DNA of 64,000 nucleotides from Candidatus Heimdallarchaeum aukensis (lineage in GTDB: Archaea > Asgardarchaeota > Heimdallarchaeia > Heimdallarchaeales > Heimdallarchaeaceae). The translations under genes and the position numbers were made by a program. The stretch spans positions 2,336,001-2,400,000 of the forward strand of contig CP084166.1 of assembly GCA_021513695.1 (NCBI GenBank), read 5' to 3'. Shown here in pieces: positions 9,437-23,515 of the stretch (within the stretch, counting starts at the first letter, position 1; each line of letters begins with the position of its first letter). The notes beneath the pieces were generated by a model. That model was not told the origin of the DNA. It made no database searches and saw only the letters and a list, made by a program, of their open reading frames with translations.

Positions 9437-10147
9437 CTACTTAGAATTGCTTTTCCAATTCTGTTTCAACTGTTCTAATGTTGGGGCTCTTCCACAGCTT
9501 TTCTCAATTTCAGGGCAATATCCATAAAAATCACAGAAAGCACCCGCTTTTTTAAACAATACTGGTGCTACCTTTTTTACTTCATTTAACATTTTGTTAG
9601 CAAGTTCTCTTATTTCCCATTGAGCTCTAACACAGCATCGTGAAGAAAAAAAGTCTATTAACGCATGTGCATTCATTGAAACAACTAATTGAGTGCTTGT
9701 TGCATTTGGAAGAATATATCTTGCATCTTCTTTTGGTACTCCTTTCTCTATCAAATCAGTATAAAAGGCAAATAATTCTTTGATTTTATTTTCATATTCC
9801 TCTTTCATTCCTAATTCATCTATAGTTTTAGGAGTAATAAAACTAAAAGAGGCTGCATTGACATATCTCTGTGATTGTTGTGAGTAACTTGCTATTCTTT
9901 TTCTTACTAATTGATGAGATAATACTCTACTCACACCAGATACATGAAATACAAAAATATTATGTTCAATAATTGAAAGATGACCTGATTCGATGATCTT
10001 GCTCAAATATTCCTCTTTTTTTAGTATAGCTTTCTGTTTGACTTTCTCTAGTTCTGACTCTTTACTATAACAAATTACGGCGGCAATGTTTGCAATTAAT
10101 TCAGCTTCTTCAGGATAACTAATTAGACTAACTTCGATAATGTTCAC
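9437..10147 (-). CDS. thyX: flavin-dependent thymidylate synthase ThyX-like
   Basis: 'HLSIIEHNIFVFHVSGVSRVLSHQLVRKRIASYSQQSQRYV', 'ARYILPNATST', 'FFSSRCCVRAQWEIR' match the ThyX fold and motifs. Typical length (236 aa). The canonical RHR reads RKR here. Confidence 0.75.
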   Translation of the reverse strand: MNIIEVSLISYPEEAELIANIAAVICYSKESELEKVKQKAILKKEEYLSKIIESGHLSIIEHNIFVFHVSGVSRVLSHQLVRKRIASYSQQSQRYVNAASFSFITPKTIDELGMKEEYENKIKELFAFYTDLIEKGVPKEDARYILPNATSTQLVVSMNAHALIDFFSSRCCVRAQWEIRELANKMLNEVKKVAPVLFKKAGAFCDFYGYCPEIEKSCGRAPTLEQLKQNWKSNSK

Positions 10148-10338: not shown

Positions 10339-13300
10339 ATGGCAACGAAAGTAAAAAAACTAAAAACTACAAAAAGGTTAAAGCACAAACCTGCTGTTGT
10401 TCCTAAAAAAACAAGAAAAATTAAAACAAAAAAAAGTAAGCTCCCAATTACTACTGTAGAAGAAAAAAAATTGAAGGTAAAAAATATAATTTTCACAATC
10501 ATCTTTGGAGCTTTAACAGTTGCAGCATTTTTCTTTAGAAAAATTATTAGTAATCTAAATCCTCCATCAGATCCAGTTACAGAACTTATTATCACAGTTG
10601 TTCGTCTATTTTTAATTGGGTTGTTTACATATATCACCCTCTTATCTTTTGAAACTTATAAGGTAAAATTCCATCCTAAACCATTAAGGATACTATTAAC
10701 GGTTATAACATTAATTGTATTCTTTCCCCTAACATTGTTTAAGTATTATACAAGACACAATGTTTGGCGAATTATATTTGTAGGAATGACTATTATATCT
10801 CTGTTTATGACCTTTTTTGGGTCGTATCTTACAGGGGTCCTCTATCGAGATAGTTTAAATGGAGCAGAACCCGATAAAAATCCTATAGATACAAGTTTCC
10901 TATCCTCTCCTTTTATTATTAATCTCCCTGTGGATATAGAATCTTTTTTGGATCTATTAAATAATTTAGGTGATCTTGATGATCTTACTTTAGAAACAAG
11001 CGTTGCTAATATTACGGCTCAAAATGGTTTTTTGGGTAATTTTCTCTATCGCTGGGATGTATACGATGAATACAATCCTGATGGCTGGGAATTTGAAAAA
11101 TCAAATGAAGCAACTTTGTATAATATTCCTCAAGATGAGAGGGGAGAACCTAGTGATTTTGATAGTGCTACAGATGTAAGAATGTCTATTCAGCAATCAA
11201 TTTATACTGCTACAAGTGGTGTAGATATTAGTTTACTTTCAACTTGGAATTCCATTTATCGTCCTCATATTGATTGGGAAAGCGATTGGAGTGATAATGT
11301 AAGAGATCTTCAAGGTAATTCAGTAGGCTCTAGTGATACAAGTATTTACTATGATACTCAAGATCAGCTTCATCTAAAAACAAAAGCAGATAAATCTGAT
11401 CCACTAACTCCTTTTCAAGGTACATTTGAGTATACGACATATTTCATGTATGAGGATGATATAGATTTTATAATGCAAAATTCTCTCGATTATGAGGACC
11501 TAGATAGTAATTATATTCAATCAGAATATTCTGCATTTTTACAAGCTCCCAATGGATATTATGATACTATCTCAACAGCCGTTACAAACTTTGCTGATAA
11601 TGAGATAGGTAGCACAATAGATTCTTCCACTTCCGTTTATGATGTAGTAAGCAGTGTAATACAAAATGTGTTAAACAAAGGTAATTTAGAGAATATCTTT
11701 GGGGCAACTAATGTAGATACAGGTGGTGAAGATCCTGCAAATGTTTTAGCTAGAAATGAAGATGCTCCATCTTCTGCTTACATTTCTTTAACAGTTATGG
11801 CTTTACGTAGATTAGGCATTCCTGCTCGCCCTGTGATGGGTTTTGCTGTAGGAAGTGGAACTGATAGTTACAGAGAAATAAAATTGGCTAATTTATATTA
11901 TTGGGTAGAAGTTCTGATGCCACTGGACACGGATAATGATGGTTCAGCAGATGAATATAGATGGGGACAATTTCAGATAGGACCATATCCTGTTGATGAA
12001 ACAACATTTGTTTTCTGCGACAATAGCCTTAATGCTCAGTATGATCTGAACCTAGAAATTTTCGAACAAACCACAGGGGATGTTAGAACCATGTCCTCTG
12101 GTGAAGGAGAAATCTATCTTGTAGATCACGGAGTAACATATACCATTCAGGTAAGTGCAACTAGAAGTGGGAACCCTTCAGAAAATGTTCCTATAACCTT
12201 AAAATCCTATTCTGCAAGTGAATTACAAGGTGGTTTTAGTACCTCTATTTTATCTGGTGGAATAGAGATATCTCAGCAACCCATTGTAACTGATGCTTCG
12301 GGTGTAGCTACATTAACTTATGAATTTACTCCTGAAAATTATTCTACTTTCGATCTTGCAGATCAAACTGGTACTACATATTTCATTGTAGCTCTTAATG
12401 GATTAAACAGTTATTCAGCAAAAGGTATAGCAATATTTCCATCAGGGTATTTAACCGATGTTGTACTAAATGCTTCAAAACAAACAATACCTAATCCCCA
12501 GAATCTGGCAGAAACGAAGACCTATTACTTGATTCAGCAAGGTTGGAAATATGAAATGTTTTCTTATCTTTATAAAGAGGGGCCACCTGGAACTGACCCT
12601 CTAGAAAATCGAACAGTAAACTATTATCTTCTAACCCCTGAGCAGTTACAAGATATAATCAACGGAGCTTCAATTGATCCTACACAGTTTACTCTAATAG
12701 GGAGCGCTACAACAGATCCAGATGGTAATTCATCTGTCTTCTCTGTAAATGAGACTACTCAAGTTGATTACTTTACTTCATTAACTGTTAACACAACATA
12801 CGCGATTTTGGCTGTATATGGTTTTAATTATTCTTATGCTCCAATAGTTATTATTGATGGATTAATAGCTTCTGTAAAAGTCAACGATACGTTATTAGAT
12901 ACTGGAACAGATGGATATACAATGTGGGAAGAAATAAATGTAACTCTTTCCATGCAACCACCTAATGGTTATGCTGAACCTCTTGCGGATGAAGATGTCT
13001 GGTTATGGGTTGTTTATGAAACTGATTGGCAAGAATATGATGGTTCAATCGATGGAACAACCTATAATTCTACATTAAATTCTTCAACAAGAAGTTATTA
13101 CATTGGACATAGAAAAACAAATTCCAACGGGCAGATTATTGAGAACTACTTAATAGATGCTACTCAACTTGGAGCAGGAAAATTCAAGATTGTTGCAATA
13201 TACTCAGAAAGATGGGAAGGTTCTGAAGACATTTTCATAGTTGTTGGACCTGCATTAAGTGTTATAATAAACACAAAAAATACAGTTATTTTAGATAGCT

Positions 13301-13449
13301 ATAGCATAGATAATGGTTCGTTTGATTTTATTAGGGGTATAAACACTTACCTTCTTGCTATTTCAGCTACAATTGCACTCGTTACTGCAAAAAAACTTCT
13401 TTTTCCTAATAAAAAGAGGTGTACCCAAAAAAAAAGAAATAAATGGTGA
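10339..13449 (+). CDS. large membrane protein with Lys-rich cytoplasmic N-terminus, TM bundle, transglutaminase-like core and C-terminal TM (probably catalytically inactive)
   Basis: TGase-like core 'AYISLTVMALRRLGIPARPVMGF...LYYWVEVLMPLD' (around nt 11750-11930). Compared with the consensus 'G.C....RxLGIPAR.V.G...HAWvEv', Cys appears replaced by Ser and His by Tyr. About 5 N-terminal TMs and a final TM 'YLLAISATIALVTA'. Confidence 0.55.
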   Translation: MATKVKKLKTTKRLKHKPAVVPKKTRKIKTKKSKLPITTVEEKKLKVKNIIFTIIFGALTVAAFFFRKIISNLNPPSDPVTELIITVVRLFLIGLFTYITLLSFETYKVKFHPKPLRILLTVITLIVFFPLTLFKYYTRHNVWRIIFVGMTIISLFMTFFGSYLTGVLYRDSLNGAEPDKNPIDTSFLSSPFIINLPVDIESFLDLLNNLGDLDDLTLETSVANITAQNGFLGNFLYRWDVYDEYNPDGWEFEKSNEATLYNIPQDERGEPSDFDSATDVRMSIQQSIYTATSGVDISLLSTWNSIYRPHIDWESDWSDNVRDLQGNSVGSSDTSIYYDTQDQLHLKTKADKSDPLTPFQGTFEYTTYFMYEDDIDFIMQNSLDYEDLDSNYIQSEYSAFLQAPNGYYDTISTAVTNFADNEIGSTIDSSTSVYDVVSSVIQNVLNKGNLENIFGATNVDTGGEDPANVLARNEDAPSSAYISLTVMALRRLGIPARPVMGFAVGSGTDSYREIKLANLYYWVEVLMPLDTDNDGSADEYRWGQFQIGPYPVDETTFVFCDNSLNAQYDLNLEIFEQTTGDVRTMSSGEGEIYLVDHGVTYTIQVSATRSGNPSENVPITLKSYSASELQGGFSTSILSGGIEISQQPIVTDASGVATLTYEFTPENYSTFDLADQTGTTYFIVALNGLNSYSAKGIAIFPSGYLTDVVLNASKQTIPNPQNLAETKTYYLIQQGWKYEMFSYLYKEGPPGTDPLENRTVNYYLLTPEQLQDIINGASIDPTQFTLIGSATTDPDGNSSVFSVNETTQVDYFTSLTVNTTYAILAVYGFNYSYAPIVIIDGLIASVKVNDTLLDTGTDGYTMWEEINVTLSMQPPNGYAEPLADEDVWLWVVYETDWQEYDGSIDGTTYNSTLNSSTRSYYIGHRKTNSNGQIIENYLIDATQLGAGKFKIVAIYSERWEGSEDIFIVVGPALSVIINTKNTVILDSYSIDNGSFDFIRGINTYLLAISATIALVTAKKLLFPNKKRCTQKKRNKW

Positions 13450-16400
13450 GAACTATGAAGTACTATAATCACATAAAAATTTTTACGGTTTTCATTTCTT
13501 TAATTATATTCTTGTCGAGTTTGCCAGTTTATTCATTTAATTATGAAAAGTTAGTTACTAAAAGTGATCTTGATCCTACAATAGAGAATAATTTAATTAA
13601 TTATGAAAATAAGAATAGAGAGTTAAATGTCTATTCTAATTTTAAGCATAGTTCTCATTTTACTAAGAGAGAGAAAAAAACACCTGGTAATTATGAATAT
13701 TATCGTTCTCCATTAAACATCGGGTTATATGTTAGTATTCCTGGGACATCTTCTCTCTCTTCTGATTCTTCAAGGTTAAAATTGAGTATTAGCAGCCCTA
13801 CAGAGGGAACAAAACTATTTCGAGGAAATACAATTACAGTTAGTGGTGTTCTCCGTTCAGCAGCCCCAAACGATTTCTGGGATGGAGAAACAGTAGAAAT
13901 ATACTATAATTTAACTGAAGCAGAGTTTAAGGTGGATCCTGATTCTTATCGTAGTTCTAACTATTATGTTACTTCCGTGGTTACAAATAGTCAAGGAGAA
14001 TTCACTGCAACAATCAGTACATCCACGCTTTCTGCTGATTTTCGCTCAAAAGTAGGAAATATTACAATTTTTACGTGGTTTGACGGGAATCCTGACAAAG
14101 GACGTGGGTCTGGTTCACCAGGAAGTTCTTATGTGTTTGTTTATGGTGGGCTGAAAACAGATGTGAGTTATTCTGTAACAAATCCCAACCAACCTTATTC
14201 ATTTACAACACGGATATTGTTTGATAATAATACTGAAGTTACAACTAGTGGAACTCAGTATCACATTCAAGTAACTTGGCTAACAGATAACAGAGTAGAC
14301 ATAAATGGTAATTTTACTTTTACAACTAACTCTCACACTTATTCAAATACAAGCCCCTCTACAATTCAAACAGTAAAATATGAATCATATTATGATAGTT
14401 CACAGCTTTCCTTAAATTTCTTCGTAACTACAGGAGATACTTCTTTCAGCAATAAACTTCTTCATGCAGTAAAGCAAGCAACTACAAGCGAACAAGTAGT
14501 TGTTTCTTCTTATTATGTTACAGGAACAGGATTGACTGATGCAGATATTGCAATACCTCTTGATTCATACATAACAGTTTATGCAAATGTATCTGATTCA
14601 TCTGGATTGGTAGGAGCTGGTTACAACGTTACTTTAGAATTCTATCATGGGACAACTAGATATAATCTAACTACGATTCAGACTAACTCTTCAGGTGCTA
14701 TCCAGACAAAACACTTCGTTGATCATAATAACATCGCTGATATAACAATTAACAATGCTTTTTATATAACAATGACAGTAAGCTCTTCAGAGTTTGGAGG
14801 TGCAGATGTTACTCCTGATTCTCTTGGATCAGTTTTAGAATCAATAATTAATTCTATTAGCATTTCAATATCTAATACAACAATTTTCTATACTTCTGGT
14901 AAATCAATTTCATATACTGTAACAGTTACAGATAATTTTGGAAGAGTTGCTCCACTTGCTCAGTTCCAAGTGGACTTTCCTGGATTAAGTGTAATTACTT
15001 CTTCAACTGGTTCTTCTGGAACAAAGACATTATCATCTGTCATTCCTTCTTATACAATTCATACTCAAACAAAAACAATAAACGTTACAGCATTATTTAC
15101 TGATGGAGGTACCTACAGATATTTCCTTAATGGTACTCCTCAAAATAATGATACATTCAATATTTATTTTGACTTAACTTTAACACTTCAAGGTCCCTAC
15201 GACTCAAATATTGTTGACGGTGAGAGTACCTCTTACTTTAATAATACTTATTATTCGTTTTTCCAAACTGGAAATATATATAACCTCACTGTAGTTGATG
15301 AATGGGGAAGAAATCCCGTAGGCGCACCTTTCTCACTAAATTTTGAAGGACAAACCGTTTCTGGTGTTGTAACATCTGGAAATAACTTTATTGAATTAGA
15401 TCCTGATTTTAACCCTACTACTGGGGTAGATATTAATGTTCCCACAACAATCTCCTTAGTTGCGGAAGCCGGTGAAGCTAATTATCAATCTTCGATTTCC
15501 CATACTGTTAGCATATATGGCCCTGATCTTGATGCTCCTGTTATAAATGGAGAAACTTTATCCCCCAATCCATTTACAACTGCTTCACATGAACCATTCT
15601 TTAATGTTAGTTTTAGTATAAGTGTTTCTGATGTAGGTAGTGGTGTTAGAAGTGTAATTATTTATTATCAAGTAATCGAATCTAATGATAGTAGTTTACT
15701 TAACCCCGCAAATTGGATTACTTTGAACCTTACTGACTTAGGTGGGGGTATATGGTTTGGTTATATAAATACCACAATTGATTTTGCCTTACAATATGTT
15801 CATTATTATATTGAAGTGAAAGATTATGCAGGTTACGGGTTGCAAGAAAATGGAACAAGGCAACCAACTGCACAATATGATGAGAATTTTGGGTTAACAG
15901 GTTACCTATACAATGAAACACATACAAACTATTATCAACTTGGAGATTATGAACCTCCAGTAGAGGTCGCAGTTCCTACTACTGTAGACTCTCCAGACCC
16001 TAAAAGTCCTTATCTTAATATTACTGTTTATGTAAATGATAGTCTTATCTATACTGGTGTATCTCAAGTTCTTATTTATATTAATAGAACTGCAGTGGGT
16101 GGTACTACAGAAATAAATTGGGTAAATGGAGTTCAGATGACTAACATTCCAGGAACAAACGCATGGTTTTACCAATTGTTAGCAGAATATAATTACCAAT
16201 ATAGTTGGTACTACGTAGCTTACGACAATGCTGAACCATCTCCAAGAACTTTCAAGAGTCAGACATATACATACGAGGCAATTGATGATACTCCTCCGAT
16301 TATTTATAATATCGATGTTGTTCCTTCTACTGGTCTCCTGTGGAACAGTACTATGAACTTCACTATAAGAGTTGATGATGTTCAAAATGAAGTAGAAAAT

Positions 16401-17147
16401 GTTACGCTGTTCATTACTCTGACAGATCCAAACGGTGTTGAAGTGGAAAATGAAGCAATAGCTTTAACAGCTCAAGCTGGTACAATTATTTATAGTTACA
16501 CCCTAGATCTGAGTGTTTTTAATTATTCAGTATATGGAGGATATTTATTAGAATATCATTTCTACGTGGAAGATACTATAGGTAATAATATTAGTACGAC
16601 TTCTGTTCAATTAGCTATTAGTAATCCTGCGCCACCCAATCGTCCTCCTGTTGGAGATCCAGCTGATCCAAGTAGTGAGACCCCTATAGGTGGTATTGTT
16701 GGAGGAGCAATTGGTGGTATTGTTGCTCTTATAGTAATTCTTTTCCTATGGTTCAATAGACACTCTCTCCGAAGTTATGCTCAGCAACAAACATTGAGAA
16801 AGAGACTAAGAGACTATCTTCGCGAAATACTAGAAGACATCAAACGTTTGGGTTCAGAAAGCCGTTACAAAGAAGCTGTTCTAAAAACCTGGCAAGTAAT
16901 TGAGGGTGTAGGAAGAGAATTTTTTGATACTCCTAGGTTTAGACATCAAACACCTATGGAGTATGCTACTGTTCTTTCCAGAAGAGGAAAGATAGATATG
17001 GCGATACTCAATACTCTTTCGGAGTATTTTGAAAAAGCAAGATATGGCGCTGAAGTGATAACTGAAACAGACTTCAATGCAACCATATCTGCATTAATGA
17101 AAATAATTAACCAGTTAGAAGCTGGTGAAATGGAAATAGAAACATAA
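13443..17147 (+). CDS. giant secreted multi-beta-sandwich (Ig-like) surface protein with C-terminal TM and cytoplasmic DUF4129 domain
   Basis: Signal peptide 'IFTVFISLIIFLSSLPVYS'. About 1000 aa of Thr/Ser/Asn-rich beta-rich repeats. TM 'IGGIVGGAIGGIVALIVILFLWF', then 'TPRFRHQTPMEYATVL...YFEKARYGAEV' (DUF4129 signature). Confidence 0.55.
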   Translation: MVRTMKYYNHIKIFTVFISLIIFLSSLPVYSFNYEKLVTKSDLDPTIENNLINYENKNRELNVYSNFKHSSHFTKREKKTPGNYEYYRSPLNIGLYVSIPGTSSLSSDSSRLKLSISSPTEGTKLFRGNTITVSGVLRSAAPNDFWDGETVEIYYNLTEAEFKVDPDSYRSSNYYVTSVVTNSQGEFTATISTSTLSADFRSKVGNITIFTWFDGNPDKGRGSGSPGSSYVFVYGGLKTDVSYSVTNPNQPYSFTTRILFDNNTEVTTSGTQYHIQVTWLTDNRVDINGNFTFTTNSHTYSNTSPSTIQTVKYESYYDSSQLSLNFFVTTGDTSFSNKLLHAVKQATTSEQVVVSSYYVTGTGLTDADIAIPLDSYITVYANVSDSSGLVGAGYNVTLEFYHGTTRYNLTTIQTNSSGAIQTKHFVDHNNIADITINNAFYITMTVSSSEFGGADVTPDSLGSVLESIINSISISISNTTIFYTSGKSISYTVTVTDNFGRVAPLAQFQVDFPGLSVITSSTGSSGTKTLSSVIPSYTIHTQTKTINVTALFTDGGTYRYFLNGTPQNNDTFNIYFDLTLTLQGPYDSNIVDGESTSYFNNTYYSFFQTGNIYNLTVVDEWGRNPVGAPFSLNFEGQTVSGVVTSGNNFIELDPDFNPTTGVDINVPTTISLVAEAGEANYQSSISHTVSIYGPDLDAPVINGETLSPNPFTTASHEPFFNVSFSISVSDVGSGVRSVIIYYQVIESNDSSLLNPANWITLNLTDLGGGIWFGYINTTIDFALQYVHYYIEVKDYAGYGLQENGTRQPTAQYDENFGLTGYLYNETHTNYYQLGDYEPPVEVAVPTTVDSPDPKSPYLNITVYVNDSLIYTGVSQVLIYINRTAVGGTTEINWVNGVQMTNIPGTNAWFYQLLAEYNYQYSWYYVAYDNAEPSPRTFKSQTYTYEAIDDTPPIIYNIDVVPSTGLLWNSTMNFTIRVDDVQNEVENVTLFITLTDPNGVEVENEAIALTAQAGTIIYSYTLDLSVFNYSVYGGYLLEYHFYVEDTIGNNISTTSVQLAISNPAPPNRPPVGDPADPSSETPIGGIVGGAIGGIVALIVILFLWFNRHSLRSYAQQQTLRKRLRDYLREILEDIKRLGSESRYKEAVLKTWQVIEGVGREFFDTPRFRHQTPMEYATVLSRRGKIDMAILNTLSEYFEKARYGAEVITETDFNATISALMKIINQLEAGEMEIET

Positions 17148-17148
17148 G

Positions 17149-17655
17149 GTGAATAAAATGTTCGGATGGGCAAAAAAGAGAAAAAGGTTAAAAAAATTAG
17201 ATCAACTGTTTAATGCTGCTATGGCTGATGTAAGAATATTTGAGCAAAGGCAAGACTATAGAGGAGCAGTTATTGCTTCATTTGGAGGTCTTGCAAGCAT
17301 TGCAGAGAACTTGATAAATCTTACAAGAGCTCCACATCAGACAGGTAGAGAATTTGGCATGCAAGTTGCAGAACAAGCAAACATCTCTACAGAAGTCATG
17401 GATGAGTTTCTTACATCTTTTGAAATAGCTAGATACACAGAAAGAGAAATAGGTTATGATGATTATCAAGAGGCCGTACAACGATTAGATGTTTGCTTTA
17501 GAGGAATACGAGAGCAAGGTATTCAAGAAATAACTGAAGTAACATCTTCAAAGAAAGAAAAGAAACCAAAAGTGAAAACAGCTAAAGCAGCAAAAACTGA
17601 AGTTAAAACTACTAAACAGTTAAAAACTCGAAAACAGTTGAAAACTAGAAGATAA
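17149..17655 (+). CDS. stand-alone DUF4129-like protein with highly basic Lys-rich C-terminal tail
   Basis: 'APHQTGREFGMQVAEQ...FEIARYTEREIGYDDYQEAV' resembles the DUF4129 core. C-terminus 'KKEKKPKVKTAKAAKTEVKTTKQLKTRKQLKTRR'. Confidence 0.4.
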   Translation: MNKMFGWAKKRKRLKKLDQLFNAAMADVRIFEQRQDYRGAVIASFGGLASIAENLINLTRAPHQTGREFGMQVAEQANISTEVMDEFLTSFEIARYTEREIGYDDYQEAVQRLDVCFRGIREQGIQEITEVTSSKKEKKPKVKTAKAAKTEVKTTKQLKTRKQLKTRR

Positions 17656-17703: not shown

Positions 17704-19488
17704 ATGTCCGAAAAAGAAAATCAAGAAATAGTGGACGAATATGAACAAGAACTTGTGAAAAAAGAAGATGATTCATCAAAAAAGAAAAAAGTAAAGAAGG
17801 CTAAAGTTAAAAGAAAAAGTAAAAAACCAAAGAAAAAATTCAAACTTAGAAAAGTAAGGTTTACAAAGTATTCTTTAGCTATGACCTTGCTATTTCTCAT
17901 AGTTATCGTTCCACTGTTTATTGGTTTAGTTGGATTAGGTGGAAGAAGTGTAAAATTTTCCATCTACAACACCGGTTGGGATGGTCTTTCCACTGTATAT
18001 AATACATTACAAGCTGAAAACAAATATGAAATATCAAACGGAATGTCAAGTTTAACTATTTTAAATAGATTGAATAGCAGTGGAGTTCTCGTAGTTATCG
18101 GACCAACAACAAGTTACAACTTTGCTGAGACAATTAGTCTCGTAACCTTTCTGGTAAGAGGAGGAAGTTTGATAGTTGCTGACGACTTTGGTTCAGGAAA
18201 TAAAATATTCGAACCGCTTTGGAACGTTATTGCAACCTATGACTCTCTTGTATCTTTAGGACTTGTTCCTTCTTTAACAGATATATTCTTCGGAAATCAA
18301 AGTGCACCATCAAATGTTACATCAGTTGAAGATTTAGCTGGTGCAGCAATTTTTGAGATGCTAGCAGGAATGTTAAAAGCAATAGGTTTTAATCAAACGG
18401 TATTAATGGATGCAGGAAGTAATTATGGTGGAGTAAGTTCTCAACCGTTGTTAAAGGATACAAATCCAGATAACCCCTTAACTGCTGGAATTACAAAGGG
18501 AGTTCAAATGGAATTTGGTACGGTATTAAGTGTTAAAATCAATAACTCTCGATATAATCCATCCACAGGACGTTATGAGTGGTATACAGATTGGGTTCCC
18601 TTGCAGCCTTTGTCTATAAATGTCACAATTGAAGGGGGAGAGTATGGAAATCTTGAGCCAATTTTCATTGAAGATGTGATGTTACCTTTTCTCTCGTTTT
18701 TCACAACTACGACATCGTGGATGGAGTCGAATTTTAGAGATGCACTTACTGGAGAAGCAGTTCCCAATGAAGGAGAATGGGGAAACACTGCCTTTGCCCC
18801 TATTTTGTCAATACCAATAGGTAGGGGAAAAATAGTTATGATTGGAGACCCTGATATATTCATAAATAAATGGATAGAAGATACAGAAAATAATGATAAC
18901 TTGCAATTTTGTCAGAATTTGTTCAATTATGTAACCGAAAATATGGTTGCAAATACAACAAGTGGAAAAATACCTATAATATTTGATGAAGGACATACAC
19001 AATATAAATTCTATAGTCCTGCTCTGGTATCAACCATTTTAATGAGGTTGATTACTGAAATGTCCATGTATCCACTTTATTCACCTTTTGTTCCTATCAT
19101 GTTTGCTGTTATAGCATATCCCCTTATCCCAAAAGCTAGACGATTGGCCCCTGTATTATGGACTAGATACAGAGGAGAAAGAGGAAGGTCACGATTTGAA
19201 CGCGAAATAAAAAGAATATTAGAAACTGGAAGTTACAGTGAAGCAGTAGGTTTACTTTATAGGTCCATGTTACGGGGAGTAAGAAAAGTAGATACCTCTG
19301 CCGCAAGTTCACCTAAATCTTTGGCAGATTTCTTTATTTCAAGGGGATACCCCCTAAAAAGAGGAGCGTTGGTAAGTGAATTCGAGCGAATTGATCGCTA
19401 TTTACAGAGACCAAAGTTGCTCCCACAATCTGAATTTGAAAAAATGTTGCAGTTTATCAAGAATTTAATTGATACTCTGCCTAAATAG
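17704..19488 (+). CDS. DUF4350-like membrane protein (module 2) with Lys-rich N-terminus
   Basis: N-terminal poly-K segment, TM, then 'TGWDGLSTVYNTLQAENKYEIS...GVLVVIGPTTSY...FLVRGGSLIVADDFGSGN' (DUF4350-like); second TM near the C-terminus. Confidence 0.55.
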   Translation: MSEKENQEIVDEYEQELVKKEDDSSKKKKVKKAKVKRKSKKPKKKFKLRKVRFTKYSLAMTLLFLIVIVPLFIGLVGLGGRSVKFSIYNTGWDGLSTVYNTLQAENKYEISNGMSSLTILNRLNSSGVLVVIGPTTSYNFAETISLVTFLVRGGSLIVADDFGSGNKIFEPLWNVIATYDSLVSLGLVPSLTDIFFGNQSAPSNVTSVEDLAGAAIFEMLAGMLKAIGFNQTVLMDAGSNYGGVSSQPLLKDTNPDNPLTAGITKGVQMEFGTVLSVKINNSRYNPSTGRYEWYTDWVPLQPLSINVTIEGGEYGNLEPIFIEDVMLPFLSFFTTTTSWMESNFRDALTGEAVPNEGEWGNTAFAPILSIPIGRGKIVMIGDPDIFINKWIEDTENNDNLQFCQNLFNYVTENMVANTTSGKIPIIFDEGHTQYKFYSPALVSTILMRLITEMSMYPLYSPFVPIMFAVIAYPLIPKARRLAPVLWTRYRGERGRSRFEREIKRILETGSYSEAVGLLYRSMLRGVRKVDTSAASSPKSLADFFISRGYPLKRGALVSEFERIDRYLQRPKLLPQSEFEKMLQFIKNLIDTLPK

Positions 19489-20551: not shown

Positions 20552-22000
20552 GTGATTACAATCTTTACACGAAGAGGAGGATACCTGATATTCTTTGGTA
20601 TTGTAATGATTAGCGTAGGCTTTGCACTTGCAGGTTTCCTAGCTCTAAATAATATACTTGAATCATTTGGAGCACATCCAGTGCCTGAAACATCAACAGA
20701 AGGCCCTCAAGGAACAGGTTTAATGGATCTTTTACATTTCTACCTTTTAGATTCGACTCTAATATGGTATTTCATCATTTTAGGTGTTATGCTAATATTT
20801 TCCGTTATGCTTGGTTTACCTTTCTATAGACTCGGTGCAAACCCTGAATCTATAGAAATAAAAAGAAAAGTAGCTAAAGCAAAAGCTTTTGCAGGAGATT
20901 ATGTGTATATAGAAGTGACAGTAAGAAACAGATCTGTAAACCAGCTTCCCCACGTAGAAATTTACGATGCAATTCCAGAAGTCTTTGACTTAGTGTTAGG
21001 CGAAAATTTCATTATTACACAGCTGAATCCAAAGGAAACAGTTACATTTGGATATGTAGTTCGGATACCAATTAGAGGATTGTTCAATATTGGACCAACT
21101 AAAGTTATAATCAAAGATAGAATGGGATTCTACGCTACAGAAGGAGAAATTAAAACAAAGACGGAGATATTAGTTTATCCAAGCTATGAAGATATTAGAA
21201 AAATGGAAATGATAGGCAAAAAACGTCGTCTAGGTGTAATTTTTGGAATGCATAGAACTAAAGTTAAAGGAATGGGAGACGATTTCGCTGGAATTAGACA
21301 GTATCAAACAGGAGATCCATTTAAATTTATTGACTGGAAAAGCGTTGCACGTTCTGGGAAAATGATGGTTCGTGAATTCGAAGCAGAGCAAAATATTCGA
21401 GTAATTATCATGATCGATGCCTCTGCAAGTATGGGTGCTGGGCTACCTAGAAACACTAAGTTAGAATATGCTATTCGAAGTGCAGTGTTACTAATGCATC
21501 TTGCTTTCGAAAAACACGATATGGTTGGTTTGTGTGTTTATGATGATGAAGTTAGAACATGGATTGATCTAACCAGTTCTAGAAATAGACTCTTTGCGTT
21601 TTTGGAGGCTTTAGCCTTAGTAAAACCAAAAGGGGAATCAGATCTAGAAAAAGCTATGGATTATGCAATAAAGAGAGTACGAAGAGCATCCTATATAGTT
21701 ATTTTGTCTGATTTAGAGTCTAATCCACAAAAAATAGTTTCAGCAATTAGGCAAGCGCGGGGACGGAAACACCAAGTAACAGTTATAAGTCCATTTGGAC
21801 CTTGGTTTGAGATTGTATCTCAGCAATTGAGCCCCATAGAGCAACTAATTGGTTATGCTATGGTTGAAAAACAGATGGGTGAAAGATATAGAATGTTTAA
21901 GGCTATAAGAAAATTCGATGCTACCACTGTTAATGTTGGACCAGATGATTTCTTACCTACAATTATGGCTCAGTTCAGAAGGATACAAAGGAGGGGATGA
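20552..22000 (+). CDS. DUF58 protein (vWA-like), module 2
   Basis: N-terminal TMs, 'FAGIRQYQTGDPFKFIDWKSVARSGKMMVREFEAEQN', then 'VIIMIDASASMG' (vWA MIDAS-like DxSxS). Confidence 0.85.
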   Translation: MITIFTRRGGYLIFFGIVMISVGFALAGFLALNNILESFGAHPVPETSTEGPQGTGLMDLLHFYLLDSTLIWYFIILGVMLIFSVMLGLPFYRLGANPESIEIKRKVAKAKAFAGDYVYIEVTVRNRSVNQLPHVEIYDAIPEVFDLVLGENFIITQLNPKETVTFGYVVRIPIRGLFNIGPTKVIIKDRMGFYATEGEIKTKTEILVYPSYEDIRKMEMIGKKRRLGVIFGMHRTKVKGMGDDFAGIRQYQTGDPFKFIDWKSVARSGKMMVREFEAEQNIRVIIMIDASASMGAGLPRNTKLEYAIRSAVLLMHLAFEKHDMVGLCVYDDEVRTWIDLTSSRNRLFAFLEALALVKPKGESDLEKAMDYAIKRVRRASYIVILSDLESNPQKIVSAIRQARGRKHQVTVISPFGPWFEIVSQQLSPIEQLIGYAMVEKQMGERYRMFKAIRKFDATTVNVGPDDFLPTIMAQFRRIQRRG

Positions 22001-22003
22001 AAA

Positions 22004-23515
22004 ATGGAATCATTATCAGAAACAAGAATGATTGATCTTGGAATTAGAGGAGTAGAACGAAGGCTTAAAGGGGCAAGAACACAGACTATTATTACCAACG
22101 TAATTTCTAGATTAATTGCTATAGGTGTTATATTATGGCTATTTCTTCAATTATGGACTAATATTGATAAAACAAAATTACCTCCTGGCCATTTAATTGA
22201 TTCACTTACTATCTTCTTTCTCTATTTTGAGAATTTTGCGGTATTATTCTTTCTTATACCAATATTCTTGATATCTTTAATTTTCGGAGCAATGGGTAGT
22301 GGCGCAGATGGGAGCGCTATATTACTTACGGCAAGAGCATTTTTTACTGTAGACATTTTCAATAATGTTTCTCCTCCAGAACCGATGACTTCATCTGAAC
22401 TTTATGGAAGTGAAAGCACAAACATGTTTTCAGTCTTTACCAGTGCTTTTGGTTATCTGTGGCGAAATCGTATTTACTTCAAAGATACTAATCGAGCAAC
22501 AATTCTCATTTTAGCTGTAATTATTTTCTGGTTAGGTGTAACTGCCTTTCTGATGAGGTCTGATATGAGGACAGCAGCAACCGTCTTTGCTTCTTCTCAA
22601 TTCATTGTACTATATGCTCAAACCCAATTGTTATTTAAAAATCAGTTATATTATGCTCCAACAGAAAATATAGTTGTGCTCTTTTCTTATGATGCAGTAA
22701 TTACAGCTTTAGCATCATATCTGTTCCTAGAGATAGCGTTGCAAACATCTTATATCTCTAAAATACTTAATCCAACGCAAGATAGACAAAAAAGAGTTTT
22801 ACAAGCTCTTGATAGACTAAAAGAATTTAGATTAGGAATAACCCCTGTAACAACAGAAGTGAGTAAACCTGAAACTGAGGAGACTAAAAAGGAAGCCTCA
22901 AAAACAATTGCAGGAGCAGGAAGCAGTTTGGTCAAAAAGTACGGTGCTACAGCAGTGGCGTTTTTAGCAGAAAAAACTAAAGATTCGCTTTTTGCTAAAC
23001 CTGGAGGACGACAAGCTAAATTGACAGGGAGACTGCAACGATATCATGATAGTTTGGTGCATAGTGATACAGAGGTTGATCAAAAACTAGTAGGGGCATC
23101 AGTAGCTGTCTCACCAATGATGACGATAGTATATATTACCATTTCAATAATCTTTAGATTAATAATAATGATGCTCGGACTATTTTTAGTCTTAAATCCT
23201 GATATTCTGTTATTCATTCTTCGTTATCCTCCTTCAATTTATTATAGTCTAGAAATGTTAGAACCAGAAGGAGTAGTTCTACTTTTAATACCAATAGTAG
23301 TAATGATATTATTGTTAACAGAGCTAATAGGTTATATACAGAAGAGATTAGCTGAAAGAATAACCCAAGAAAAAACAGAAGAAGAATTAATGGAAGAAAT
23401 TCAATATGAAGAAGAAGAGGGCACAGGAGTAGTAACAGAAGGACCGATAAGTGATATATCAGAAGAAGAATTATTCTATAAACAATTAGAAGAAGAATTC
23501 TCTGATGAAGAATAA
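22004..23515 (+). CDS. polytopic membrane protein with strongly acidic C-terminal tail, hypothetical (end of module 2)
   Basis: 503 aa with many hydrophobic segments. C-terminus 'EEELMEEIQYEEEEGTG...EEELFYKQLEEEFSDEE'. Same position as the membrane protein ending module 1. Confidence 0.45.
   Translation: MESLSETRMIDLGIRGVERRLKGARTQTIITNVISRLIAIGVILWLFLQLWTNIDKTKLPPGHLIDSLTIFFLYFENFAVLFFLIPIFLISLIFGAMGSGADGSAILLTARAFFTVDIFNNVSPPEPMTSSELYGSESTNMFSVFTSAFGYLWRNRIYFKDTNRATILILAVIIFWLGVTAFLMRSDMRTAATVFASSQFIVLYAQTQLLFKNQLYYAPTENIVVLFSYDAVITALASYLFLEIALQTSYISKILNPTQDRQKRVLQALDRLKEFRLGITPVTTEVSKPETEETKKEASKTIAGAGSSLVKKYGATAVAFLAEKTKDSLFAKPGGRQAKLTGRLQRYHDSLVHSDTEVDQKLVGASVAVSPMMTIVYITISIIFRLIIMMLGLFLVLNPDILLFILRYPPSIYYSLEMLEPEGVVLLLIPIVVMILLLTELIGYIQKRLAERITQEKTEEELMEEIQYEEEEGTGVVTEGPISDISEEELFYKQLEEEFSDEE

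Follow-up and report, generated by a model that had tools for sequence, protein, structure and literature searches.

We show that the 1036-residue protein encoded at 10339-13449 on the forward strand of a 64,000-nucleotide stretch of the Candidatus Heimdallarchaeum aukensis genome (contig CP084166.1, positions 2,336,001 to 2,400,000; the window, hereafter, is this whole stretch) carries a transglutaminase (TGase)-like core whose catalytic triad is, as read from sequence alignments, replaced in full: Cys by Ser, Ala or a hydrophobic residue, His by Tyr or Phe, and Asp by Gln. Because all three catalytic residues are replaced, no Cys-His-Asp acyl-transfer or protease chemistry is to be expected of this domain. 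Since the catalytic residues are lost while the fold, the conservation of the domain, purifying selection and synteny within an operon are all maintained, we infer a non-catalytic role, and we consider it probable that the pseudo-TGase is a TgpA-like ectodomain that acts as a binding or scaffolding subunit of a MoxR/vWA envelope machine. A first-pass annotation had proposed an inactive TGase scaffold within a MoxR/vWA module, and this proposal holds, as the triad is lost in every orthologue found and genes for DUF4129, DUF4350, MoxR and DUF58-vWA proteins adjoin.

A transglutaminase fold with a replaced catalytic triad

The gene, its core and the residues on which the argument turns are the following:

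10339..13449, + strand: TgpA-like pseudo-transglutaminase membrane protein, whole gene, 1036 aa (list of open reading frames, ORFs, and translation)
11461..12033, + strand: transglutaminase-like (papain-fold) core, aa 375-565, catalytically degenerate
11770..11772, + strand: S478, position of the nucleophilic Cys, first residue of helix 478-491; A, S, F, I, L or V in orthologues, never Cys
11896..11898, + strand: Y520, position of the catalytic His, start of strand 519-529 ('YYWVEV'); only Y or F in orthologues
11974..11976, + strand: Q546, position of the catalytic Asp, 'WGQFQ' against the usual 'WxxFDP'; Q in 14/14 orthologue representatives
12016..12018, + strand: C560, sole Cys of the ectodomain, not a convincing relocated nucleophile

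The presence of a TGase-like core is well supported. Pfam PF01841 (Transglut_core) matches aa 430-542 above its cut-off (E 8.2e-8; score 32.9 bits, gathering threshold 23), and a hidden Markov model (HMM) built from 60-odd remote relatives matches the ORF at 2.3e-27 and detects no second TGase-like ORF among the 247 six-frame ORFs of the window. The stretch singled out by the first-pass annotation, 11750-11930, corresponds in the frame of the ORF to aa 471-530, RNEDAPSSAYISLTVMALRRLGIPARPVMGFAVGSGTDSYREIKLANLYYWVEVLMPLD. An exhaustive profile search of 1.84 billion representative proteins returned 118 matches; a core HMM was built, the best domain of 115 relatives, 82 of them remote, was aligned with hmmalign, and the catalytic columns were read from this alignment. 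The structural motifs of the superfamily, namely RxxG(I/L)PxR, xWxE and a Trp before the third strand, are all present: R490, I494, P495, R497, W522, E524 and W542 are invariant in orthologues and common to about 79-80 of the 82 remote relatives (80/82 for R490 and R497 of RxxGIPAR, 79/82 for W522 and E524).

The catalytic columns read differently. Column 476 is Gly in 75/82 remote relatives and Ala in the window protein, column 478 is Cys in 32/82 and here Ser, column 520 is His in 57/82 and here Tyr, and column 546 is Asp in 45/82 or Glu in 22/82 and here Gln. None of the catalytic signatures of an active TGase is found in the window protein: the G-x-C nucleophile is missing and even the Gly at 476 is replaced (A/K/R), the 'HxWxE' strand has no His, and 'WxxFDP' has no Asp or Glu as third member. 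The earlier claim that the catalytic Cys and His are substituted is thus confirmed at S478 and Y520 by three independent approaches, alignment to a TgpA profile, the alignment of 115 relatives and an AlphaFold2 (AF2) model; that claim overlooked a third loss, Asp to Q546, which lies just outside 11750-11930. In the profile match to PDB 6g49 (TgpA), which is weak (E 0.6), the Cys of 'GFCAHY' falls on S478 and the His of 'DAHAWVE' on Y520; single-sequence and profile searches of PDB sequences gave marginal matches only.

The full-length AF2 model, computed from a 28-sequence alignment, has a mean pLDDT (AF2's per-residue confidence score) of 72.9, with values of about 80-90 over aa 220-970, and its core can be superposed on solved members of the TGase superfamily. 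An earlier model of aa 170-690 made from 8 sequences reached a pLDDT of 53.6, and its Foldseek matches pointed toward TGases at structural-alignment (TM) scores below 0.45. In the full-length model, S478 is the first residue of helix 478-491, Y520 opens strand 519-529 and Q546 directly follows strand 539-545, which in the predicted structure are the places where a papain-like fold carries its Cys, His and Asp.

Orthologues, graded loss of the triad and selection

An NCBI protein annotated as 'transglutaminase domain-containing protein', from a metagenome-assembled genome (MAG) labelled 'Candidatus Heimdallarchaeaceae archaeon', differs from the window protein at 3 residues, and the closest complete genome, that of Ca. 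Heimdallarchaeum endolithica PR6, encodes a version with 90% identity. The orthologue group comprises 14 representatives at 50% clustering. In a GTDB scan based on an 8-sequence alignment, 21 species genomes, nearly all labelled Heimdallarchaeota, were found to encode a relative, and in 17 of them, not counting the window's own protein, the triad columns were readable. Orthologues all read [S/A/F/I/L/V]-[Y/F]-Q at these columns, with no Cys, His or Asp/Glu there in any of the 14 representatives or the 17 translated genome loci. Whether the Ser and Tyr are themselves conserved, a question raised in the first-pass annotation, has a divided answer: position 520 is only ever Tyr or Phe, while position 478 varies among A, S, F, I, L and V, and therefore the Ser found there is not a conserved substitute nucleophile.

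Beyond the orthologues, the triad appears to have been lost to different degrees. An intermediate clade of 19 representatives, including a Kariarchaeaceae MAG protein, has no Cys (I/V/M/T/P and others instead), keeps His in 15/19 and mostly has Asn for Asp, as in 'WGxFNPIP'. Remoter 'AHD' and 'SHD' proteins, among them P0047 from an Asgardarchaeia MAG, lack only the Cys, and the intact C-H-D/E triad is found in only 31/115 relatives. In every tier, those members whose genomic context was read lie in a similar MoxR-type module. Because the Cys-less tiers retain His and Asp or Asn within similar modules, these data suggest a stepwise process in which the nucleophile was lost early in the operon-associated lineage and the other triad residues later, an order that derives from alignment tiers and not from a tree.

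The remote relatives (P0049, P0053, P0062, P0087 and others) include nine with Ser-His-Asp and eight with Ala-His-Asp, in the context 'G-x-[SA]-x-H-F'. The alternation of Ser and Ala at the nucleophile column suggests that most of these proteins are also non-catalytic, and a Ser-His-Asp variant enzyme among them is conceivable.

The degenerate domain is not decaying. Against an 89%-identical orthologue (JGI contig L005), the Nei-Gojobori ratio of nonsynonymous to synonymous substitution rates (dN/dS) is 0.07 for the whole gene and 0.034 for aa 421-565, which rejects a pseudogene or relic; in the same comparison dN is 0.070 in the C-terminal ectodomain and 0.033 in the core. The most conserved 30-residue blocks of the protein are 481-510 (core helix and RxxGIPARPVxGFAxG), 121-150 (membrane loop) and 541-570 (WGQFQ...C.N), and the core motifs are the most conserved part of the ectodomain. 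By these sequence measures, the domain is fixed and strongly constrained across Heimdallarchaeia.

One subgroup of orthologues (GTDB loci L017, L020, L023, L026 and L028) has 'RLNNIPCRPV' in place of RxxGIPAR, which adds a Cys at the helix-strand turn of the core.

Membrane architecture and gene neighbourhood

Around the core, the protein is organized as follows:

10339..10476, + strand: Lys-rich N-terminal tail, aa 1-46, presumed cytoplasmic (sequence)
10477..10848, + strand: membrane region, aa 47-170, four hydrophobic helices (hydropathy, AF2, list of invariant residues)
10999..11448, + strand: N-terminal beta-rich subdomain of the ectodomain, aa 221-370 (AF2 strands, pLDDT about 80-90)
12043..13242, + strand: beta-sandwich (macroglobulin/immunoglobulin-like) stalk, aa 569-968, with most of the 13 N-x-S/T sequons
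13330..13398, + strand: C-terminal transmembrane helix, aa 998-1020, followed by a basic tail (hydropathy, AF2 helix)

The Lys-rich tail and the C-terminal transmembrane helix had been described correctly in the first-pass annotation, which missed the four hydrophobic helices near the N-terminus. The tail is kept in orthologues, with K9, K17, P18, A19, K29 and P36 invariant, and by the positive-inside rule would be cytoplasmic. AF2 places the membrane helices, at low pLDDT, at 47-72, 79-105, 115-134 and 141-170. Two basic loops of this region, 106-114 and 135-144, hold invariant residues (FETYK; K135, T138, R139, H140 and R144), and orthologue P0004 has a 22-residue hydrophobic insertion exactly within segment 115-134. 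The TgpA-like domain spans aa 221-565 and consists of the core and the preceding beta-rich part, the latter (aa 221-370) read from the model as probably belonging to the region that superposes on the periplasmic domain of TgpA. The modelled stalk domains resemble, according to Foldseek, the macroglobulin (MG)/immunoglobulin (Ig)-like domains of alpha-2-macroglobulin, complement, CD109, invasin and intimin. With its 13 sequons, a single Cys in the ectodomain, MG/Ig-like domains in the model and a C-terminal transmembrane helix with a basic tail, the protein looks like a surface protein, and by analogy with TgpA (PMC3507681) its large domain is most likely extracellular.

The pseudo-TGase gene heads a co-directional cluster on one strand, in which genes overlap or nearly abut:

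13443..17147, + strand: type-I membrane protein, 1234 aa, large sequon-rich ectodomain, DUF4129 near the C-terminus; 7-nt overlap with the pseudo-TGase gene
17149..17655, + strand: soluble DUF4129 protein, 168 aa, no transmembrane segment (Pfam)
17704..19488, + strand: DUF4350 (GldG/IFT52-GIFT-like) membrane-anchored protein (Pfam; family described in PMC5898192)
19540..20541, + strand: MoxR-type AAA+ ATPase, AAA_3 and AAA_lid_2 (Pfam E 3e-64)
20552..22000, + strand: DUF58/vWA protein with an N-terminal transmembrane hairpin (Pfam DUF58 5e-36, VWA_2 6e-15)
22004..23515, + strand: polytopic membrane protein, 503 aa, last gene of the module (hydropathy; position kept in related loci L002, L006 and L008)

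The 1234-aa neighbour has transmembrane-like segments at 9-34 and 1080-1109, 30 sequons and weak Pfam matches to Big_1 and MG2; its DUF4129 (aa 1163-1213) follows the last of these segments and is therefore probably cytoplasmic. Above the Pfam cut-off it matches DUF4129 alone, with no TGase domain. Judging from their sequences, it and the pseudo-TGase look like large surface glycoproteins. The 503-aa protein has no Pfam match at the gathering score. The pseudo-TGase always comes first in this unit of seven genes. The order of the genes is kept at 41%, 37% and 30% identity of the pseudo-TGase and also in the intermediate clade; linkage to MoxR and DUF58 is maintained in L001, L002, L006 and L008, and a remote Cys-less Asgard relative likewise sits before DUF4350-MoxR-DUF58. 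A 16-gene order that includes thyX and an EF-2 flank is shared with the Heimdallarchaeial contigs L001, L002 and L006, in which the pseudo-TGase is 30-41% identical. We rejected an involvement of the MoxR-vWA module in anti-phage defence, as none of the seven module proteins matched PADLOC-DB at E ≤ 1e-3.

A paralogous MoxR module lies upstream on the + strand, and the tandem pair spans 1340-23515, split by thyX (9437-10147, minus strand). The sister module is ordered as a PrsW-like polytopic protein, a polytopic protein, DUF4129, DUF4350, MoxR, DUF58 and another polytopic protein, so that a PrsW-like protein leads module 1 where the pseudo-TGase leads module 2. This PrsW-like protein (1340-2986, + strand) is polytopic, with 548 aa and 14 Cys; inserted between its membrane segments is a stretch, aa 352-397, that weakly matches a double zinc ribbon. 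Homologues of the protein in related loci match PF13367 (PrsW-protease), and by eye its 'IIEEISK' and 'HILWN' resemble the EExxK and HxxxN signatures of PrsW; the protein that heads the sister module may thus be an active membrane protease. Two further observations concern the MoxR genes of related contigs. On the contig of the 89% orthologue (L005, 4596-6596), the MoxR and DUF58 genes of module 1 are called as one 666-aa product, which may reflect fused genes, a frameshift or an artefact of assembly. In an Asgardarchaeia MAG (L007, 14808-16736), an intein (PF14890, Intein_splicing) is present in the 642-aa MoxR ATPase of the equivalent module.

Possible roles of the pseudo-transglutaminase and comparison with known systems

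A structural or adhesive role, as proposed in the first-pass annotation, is plausible given the strong purifying selection, the surface-type architecture with an MG/Ig-like stalk, and precedents for TGase domains that function without catalysis. In the binding or scaffolding role favoured here, a partner or ligand would be held outside the cell by the stalk and by what was once the substrate cleft, the basic loops conserved in the membrane region and the DUF4129 proteins would couple the pseudo-TGase to the cytoplasmic MoxR/vWA pair, and this pair would assemble or remodel the envelope complex.

Several points weigh against this interpretation. By parity, a cytoplasmic N-terminus followed by four membrane crossings would leave the large domain in the cytoplasm; an extracellular domain requires one re-entrant segment, and we suspect segment 115-134, because both of its flanking loops are basic and invariant and because of the hydrophobic insertion in P0004. 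Position 479, next to the lost nucleophile, is Ser or Thr in about 12/14 orthologue representatives (two alignments differ slightly), and C560 is nearly invariant in orthologues, which leaves some room for an unconventional chemistry. RxxGIPAR, W522, E524 and W542 also determine the fold of active TGases, and their conservation may reflect stability only. Finally, the orthologue sample is small, with about 20-30 MAG-derived sequences, and since WGQFQ was one of the two GTDB search patterns, the presence of Q546 at those loci is partly circular, which does not apply to the HMMER set.

The alternative that fares best, which we regard as a minority possibility, is that the protein is a surface adhesin whose TGase cleft and stalk bind an external ligand, be it a cell, a partner organism, a mineral or a polymer. 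The stalk resembles invasin, intimin, other large adhesins and the MG domains of alpha-2-macroglobulin, the pseudo-TGase looks surface-exposed and sequon-rich, and substitutions accumulate faster in the C-terminal ectodomain than in the core (dN 0.070 versus 0.033). However, strict co-linearity with six genes, one of which encodes a cytoplasmic ATPase, across 30-100% identity points to a fixed multi-subunit machine, and the low dN/dS throughout (0.03-0.07) gives no hint of the diversifying selection that adhesins often show. Adhesion and the scaffolding role favoured here are compatible. The partner may be either an operon-encoded subunit or an external ligand.

It is tempting to go further and regard the pseudo-TGase as the ligand-holding ectodomain of a hitherto undescribed, Asgard-wide, ATP-driven surface machine, in which a cytoplasmic MoxR/vWA motor is coupled via DUF4129 to giant glycoproteins and a former enzyme has become a receptor, an idea that we hold improbable in this extended form. 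Its stepwise conversion may then have begun with the loss of Cys, continued with Asp to Asn and ended with His to Tyr and Asn to Gln. At its boldest, this idea would have the near-invariant C560 react with Q544/Q546, both invariant, to give an internal thioester 'warhead' for covalent attachment beside the MG-like domains, by analogy with thioester-domain adhesins and complement.

An enzyme with a non-canonical or relocated active site, built on Ser/Thr479, on C560 or on an internal thioester between Cys560 and Gln544/546, is in our view very unlikely. The frequency of Ser or Thr at 479, the near-constancy of C560 (Cys in 12/13 full-length orthologues and 17/17 translated genome loci), the invariance of Q544 and Q546 and the vasohibins, which show that variant triads can be used by TGase-like folds (PMC4866520), are all in keeping with it. 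Yet the 93 invariant columns of a 13-orthologue alignment (30-89% identity) include no Cys and a single His, H140, located in a membrane-region loop, and that alignment has no invariant His, Asp, Glu or Lys in the core that could activate a nucleophile. Ser or Thr at the N-terminus of a helix is a common capping residue, which would explain position 479 at its expected helix N-cap; the same position is Pro in P0007. Cys-less relatives have no Cys within three columns of the nucleophile column. C560 itself is Gly in P0012 and throughout the intermediate clade, fell in a loop of low confidence in the earlier AF2 model and has no conserved His partner, and we therefore rejected it as a relocated nucleophile; a thioester is further disfavoured by the lack of sequence similarity to known thioester domains. 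An intact Cys-His-Asp triad elsewhere in the domain, which would have overturned the earlier reading, was looked for and not found. That the triad loss is an alignment artefact or functionless drift is almost certainly wrong: the single-sequence Pfam match is modest (E 8e-8) and the PDB sequence match weak (E 0.6), but both versions were tested in this analysis and rejected.

These findings bear on annotation and on the origin of pseudoenzymes. The label 'transglutaminase domain-containing' may be taken to mean cross-linking on the Asgard cell surface, which would be wrong for the whole clade. The conserved and duplicated seven-gene envelope module defined here in Heimdallarchaeia, which in many analyses are the archaea closest to eukaryotes, offers a testable entry point to Asgard surface biology. 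With its lead subunit, the conversion of an enzyme into a scaffold, familiar in eukaryotes from protein 4.2, Cyk3 and Rad4, gains a prokaryotic example, and the apparently graded loss of the triad within one operon type could help to study how pseudoenzymes arise. The finding is otherwise incremental within a well-known superfamily, and our search of the open-access literature for Asgard and transglutaminase retrieved no paper on this protein.

In eukaryotes, TGase domains that lack catalysis yet have essential scaffolding functions are well established, in yeast Cyk3 (PMC3386208) and in EPB42 (erythrocyte protein 4.2), Rad4/XPC, FBXO21 and CC2D2A (PMC10318531). Like the window protein, these eukaryotic pseudo-TGases have kept the fold, lost catalysis and serve in scaffolding or binding; unlike it, they are cytoplasmic or nuclear, not specifically related, and none is a polytopic surface protein or lies in a MoxR/vWA operon. 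Structures of protein 4.2 (7uzs, 8cs9_X) are among the Foldseek matches of the window protein, ranking no better than active animal TGases.

The operon has counterparts of its own. For archaea, Makarova, Galperin and Koonin (2015, PMC5898192) predicted that a DUF4350 (arCOG01314)-MoxR-vWA neighbourhood encodes a complex for secretion or membrane remodelling, and the present module belongs to this type by Pfam and by its modelled MG/Ig-like domains, with the same three core genes beside membrane or surface proteins with Ig-like domains. It departs from that neighbourhood in having a pseudo-TGase and two DUF4129 proteins at its head and in being duplicated in tandem; the text of PMC5898192 mentions neither 'transglutaminase' nor 'DUF4129'. 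The bifidobacterial PFNA cluster (pkb2, fn3, aaa-atp, duf58, tgm) similarly combines a MoxR-type ATPase, DUF58, a TGase-like protein and an Ig-like (FN3) surface protein (PMC8430577, PMC6803598), but it is bacterial, includes a kinase and is without DUF4350 or DUF4129.

Among relatives of solved structure, TgpA (PA2873) from Pseudomonas aeruginosa (PDB 6g49/6g4h) is the closest. It is an active and essential inner-membrane TGase with an intact Cys-His-Asp triad and measurable activity, co-transcribed with PA2875-PA2874. These two upstream genes encode MoxR-like and DUF58-like proteins. The window protein shares with TgpA an outward-facing TGase domain of the same fold, as predicted, and the linkage to MoxR and DUF58. 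Its membrane region shows no match to DUF3488 (PF11992) even at E ≤ 10, and its four hydrophobic helices occupy the equivalent position; DUF4129, part of TgpA-type proteins, is not found by Pfam in the 10339-13449 ORF and is present instead in the next two genes. The archaeal protein further differs in an identity of about 12-14%, in the replacement of all three triad residues and in about 400 extra residues of MG/Ig-like domains after the core. Pseudo-transglutaminases are a known class, to which this protein adds a new member, an archaeal form of the TgpA-type membrane transglutaminase whose degeneration is complete and extends over the whole clade.

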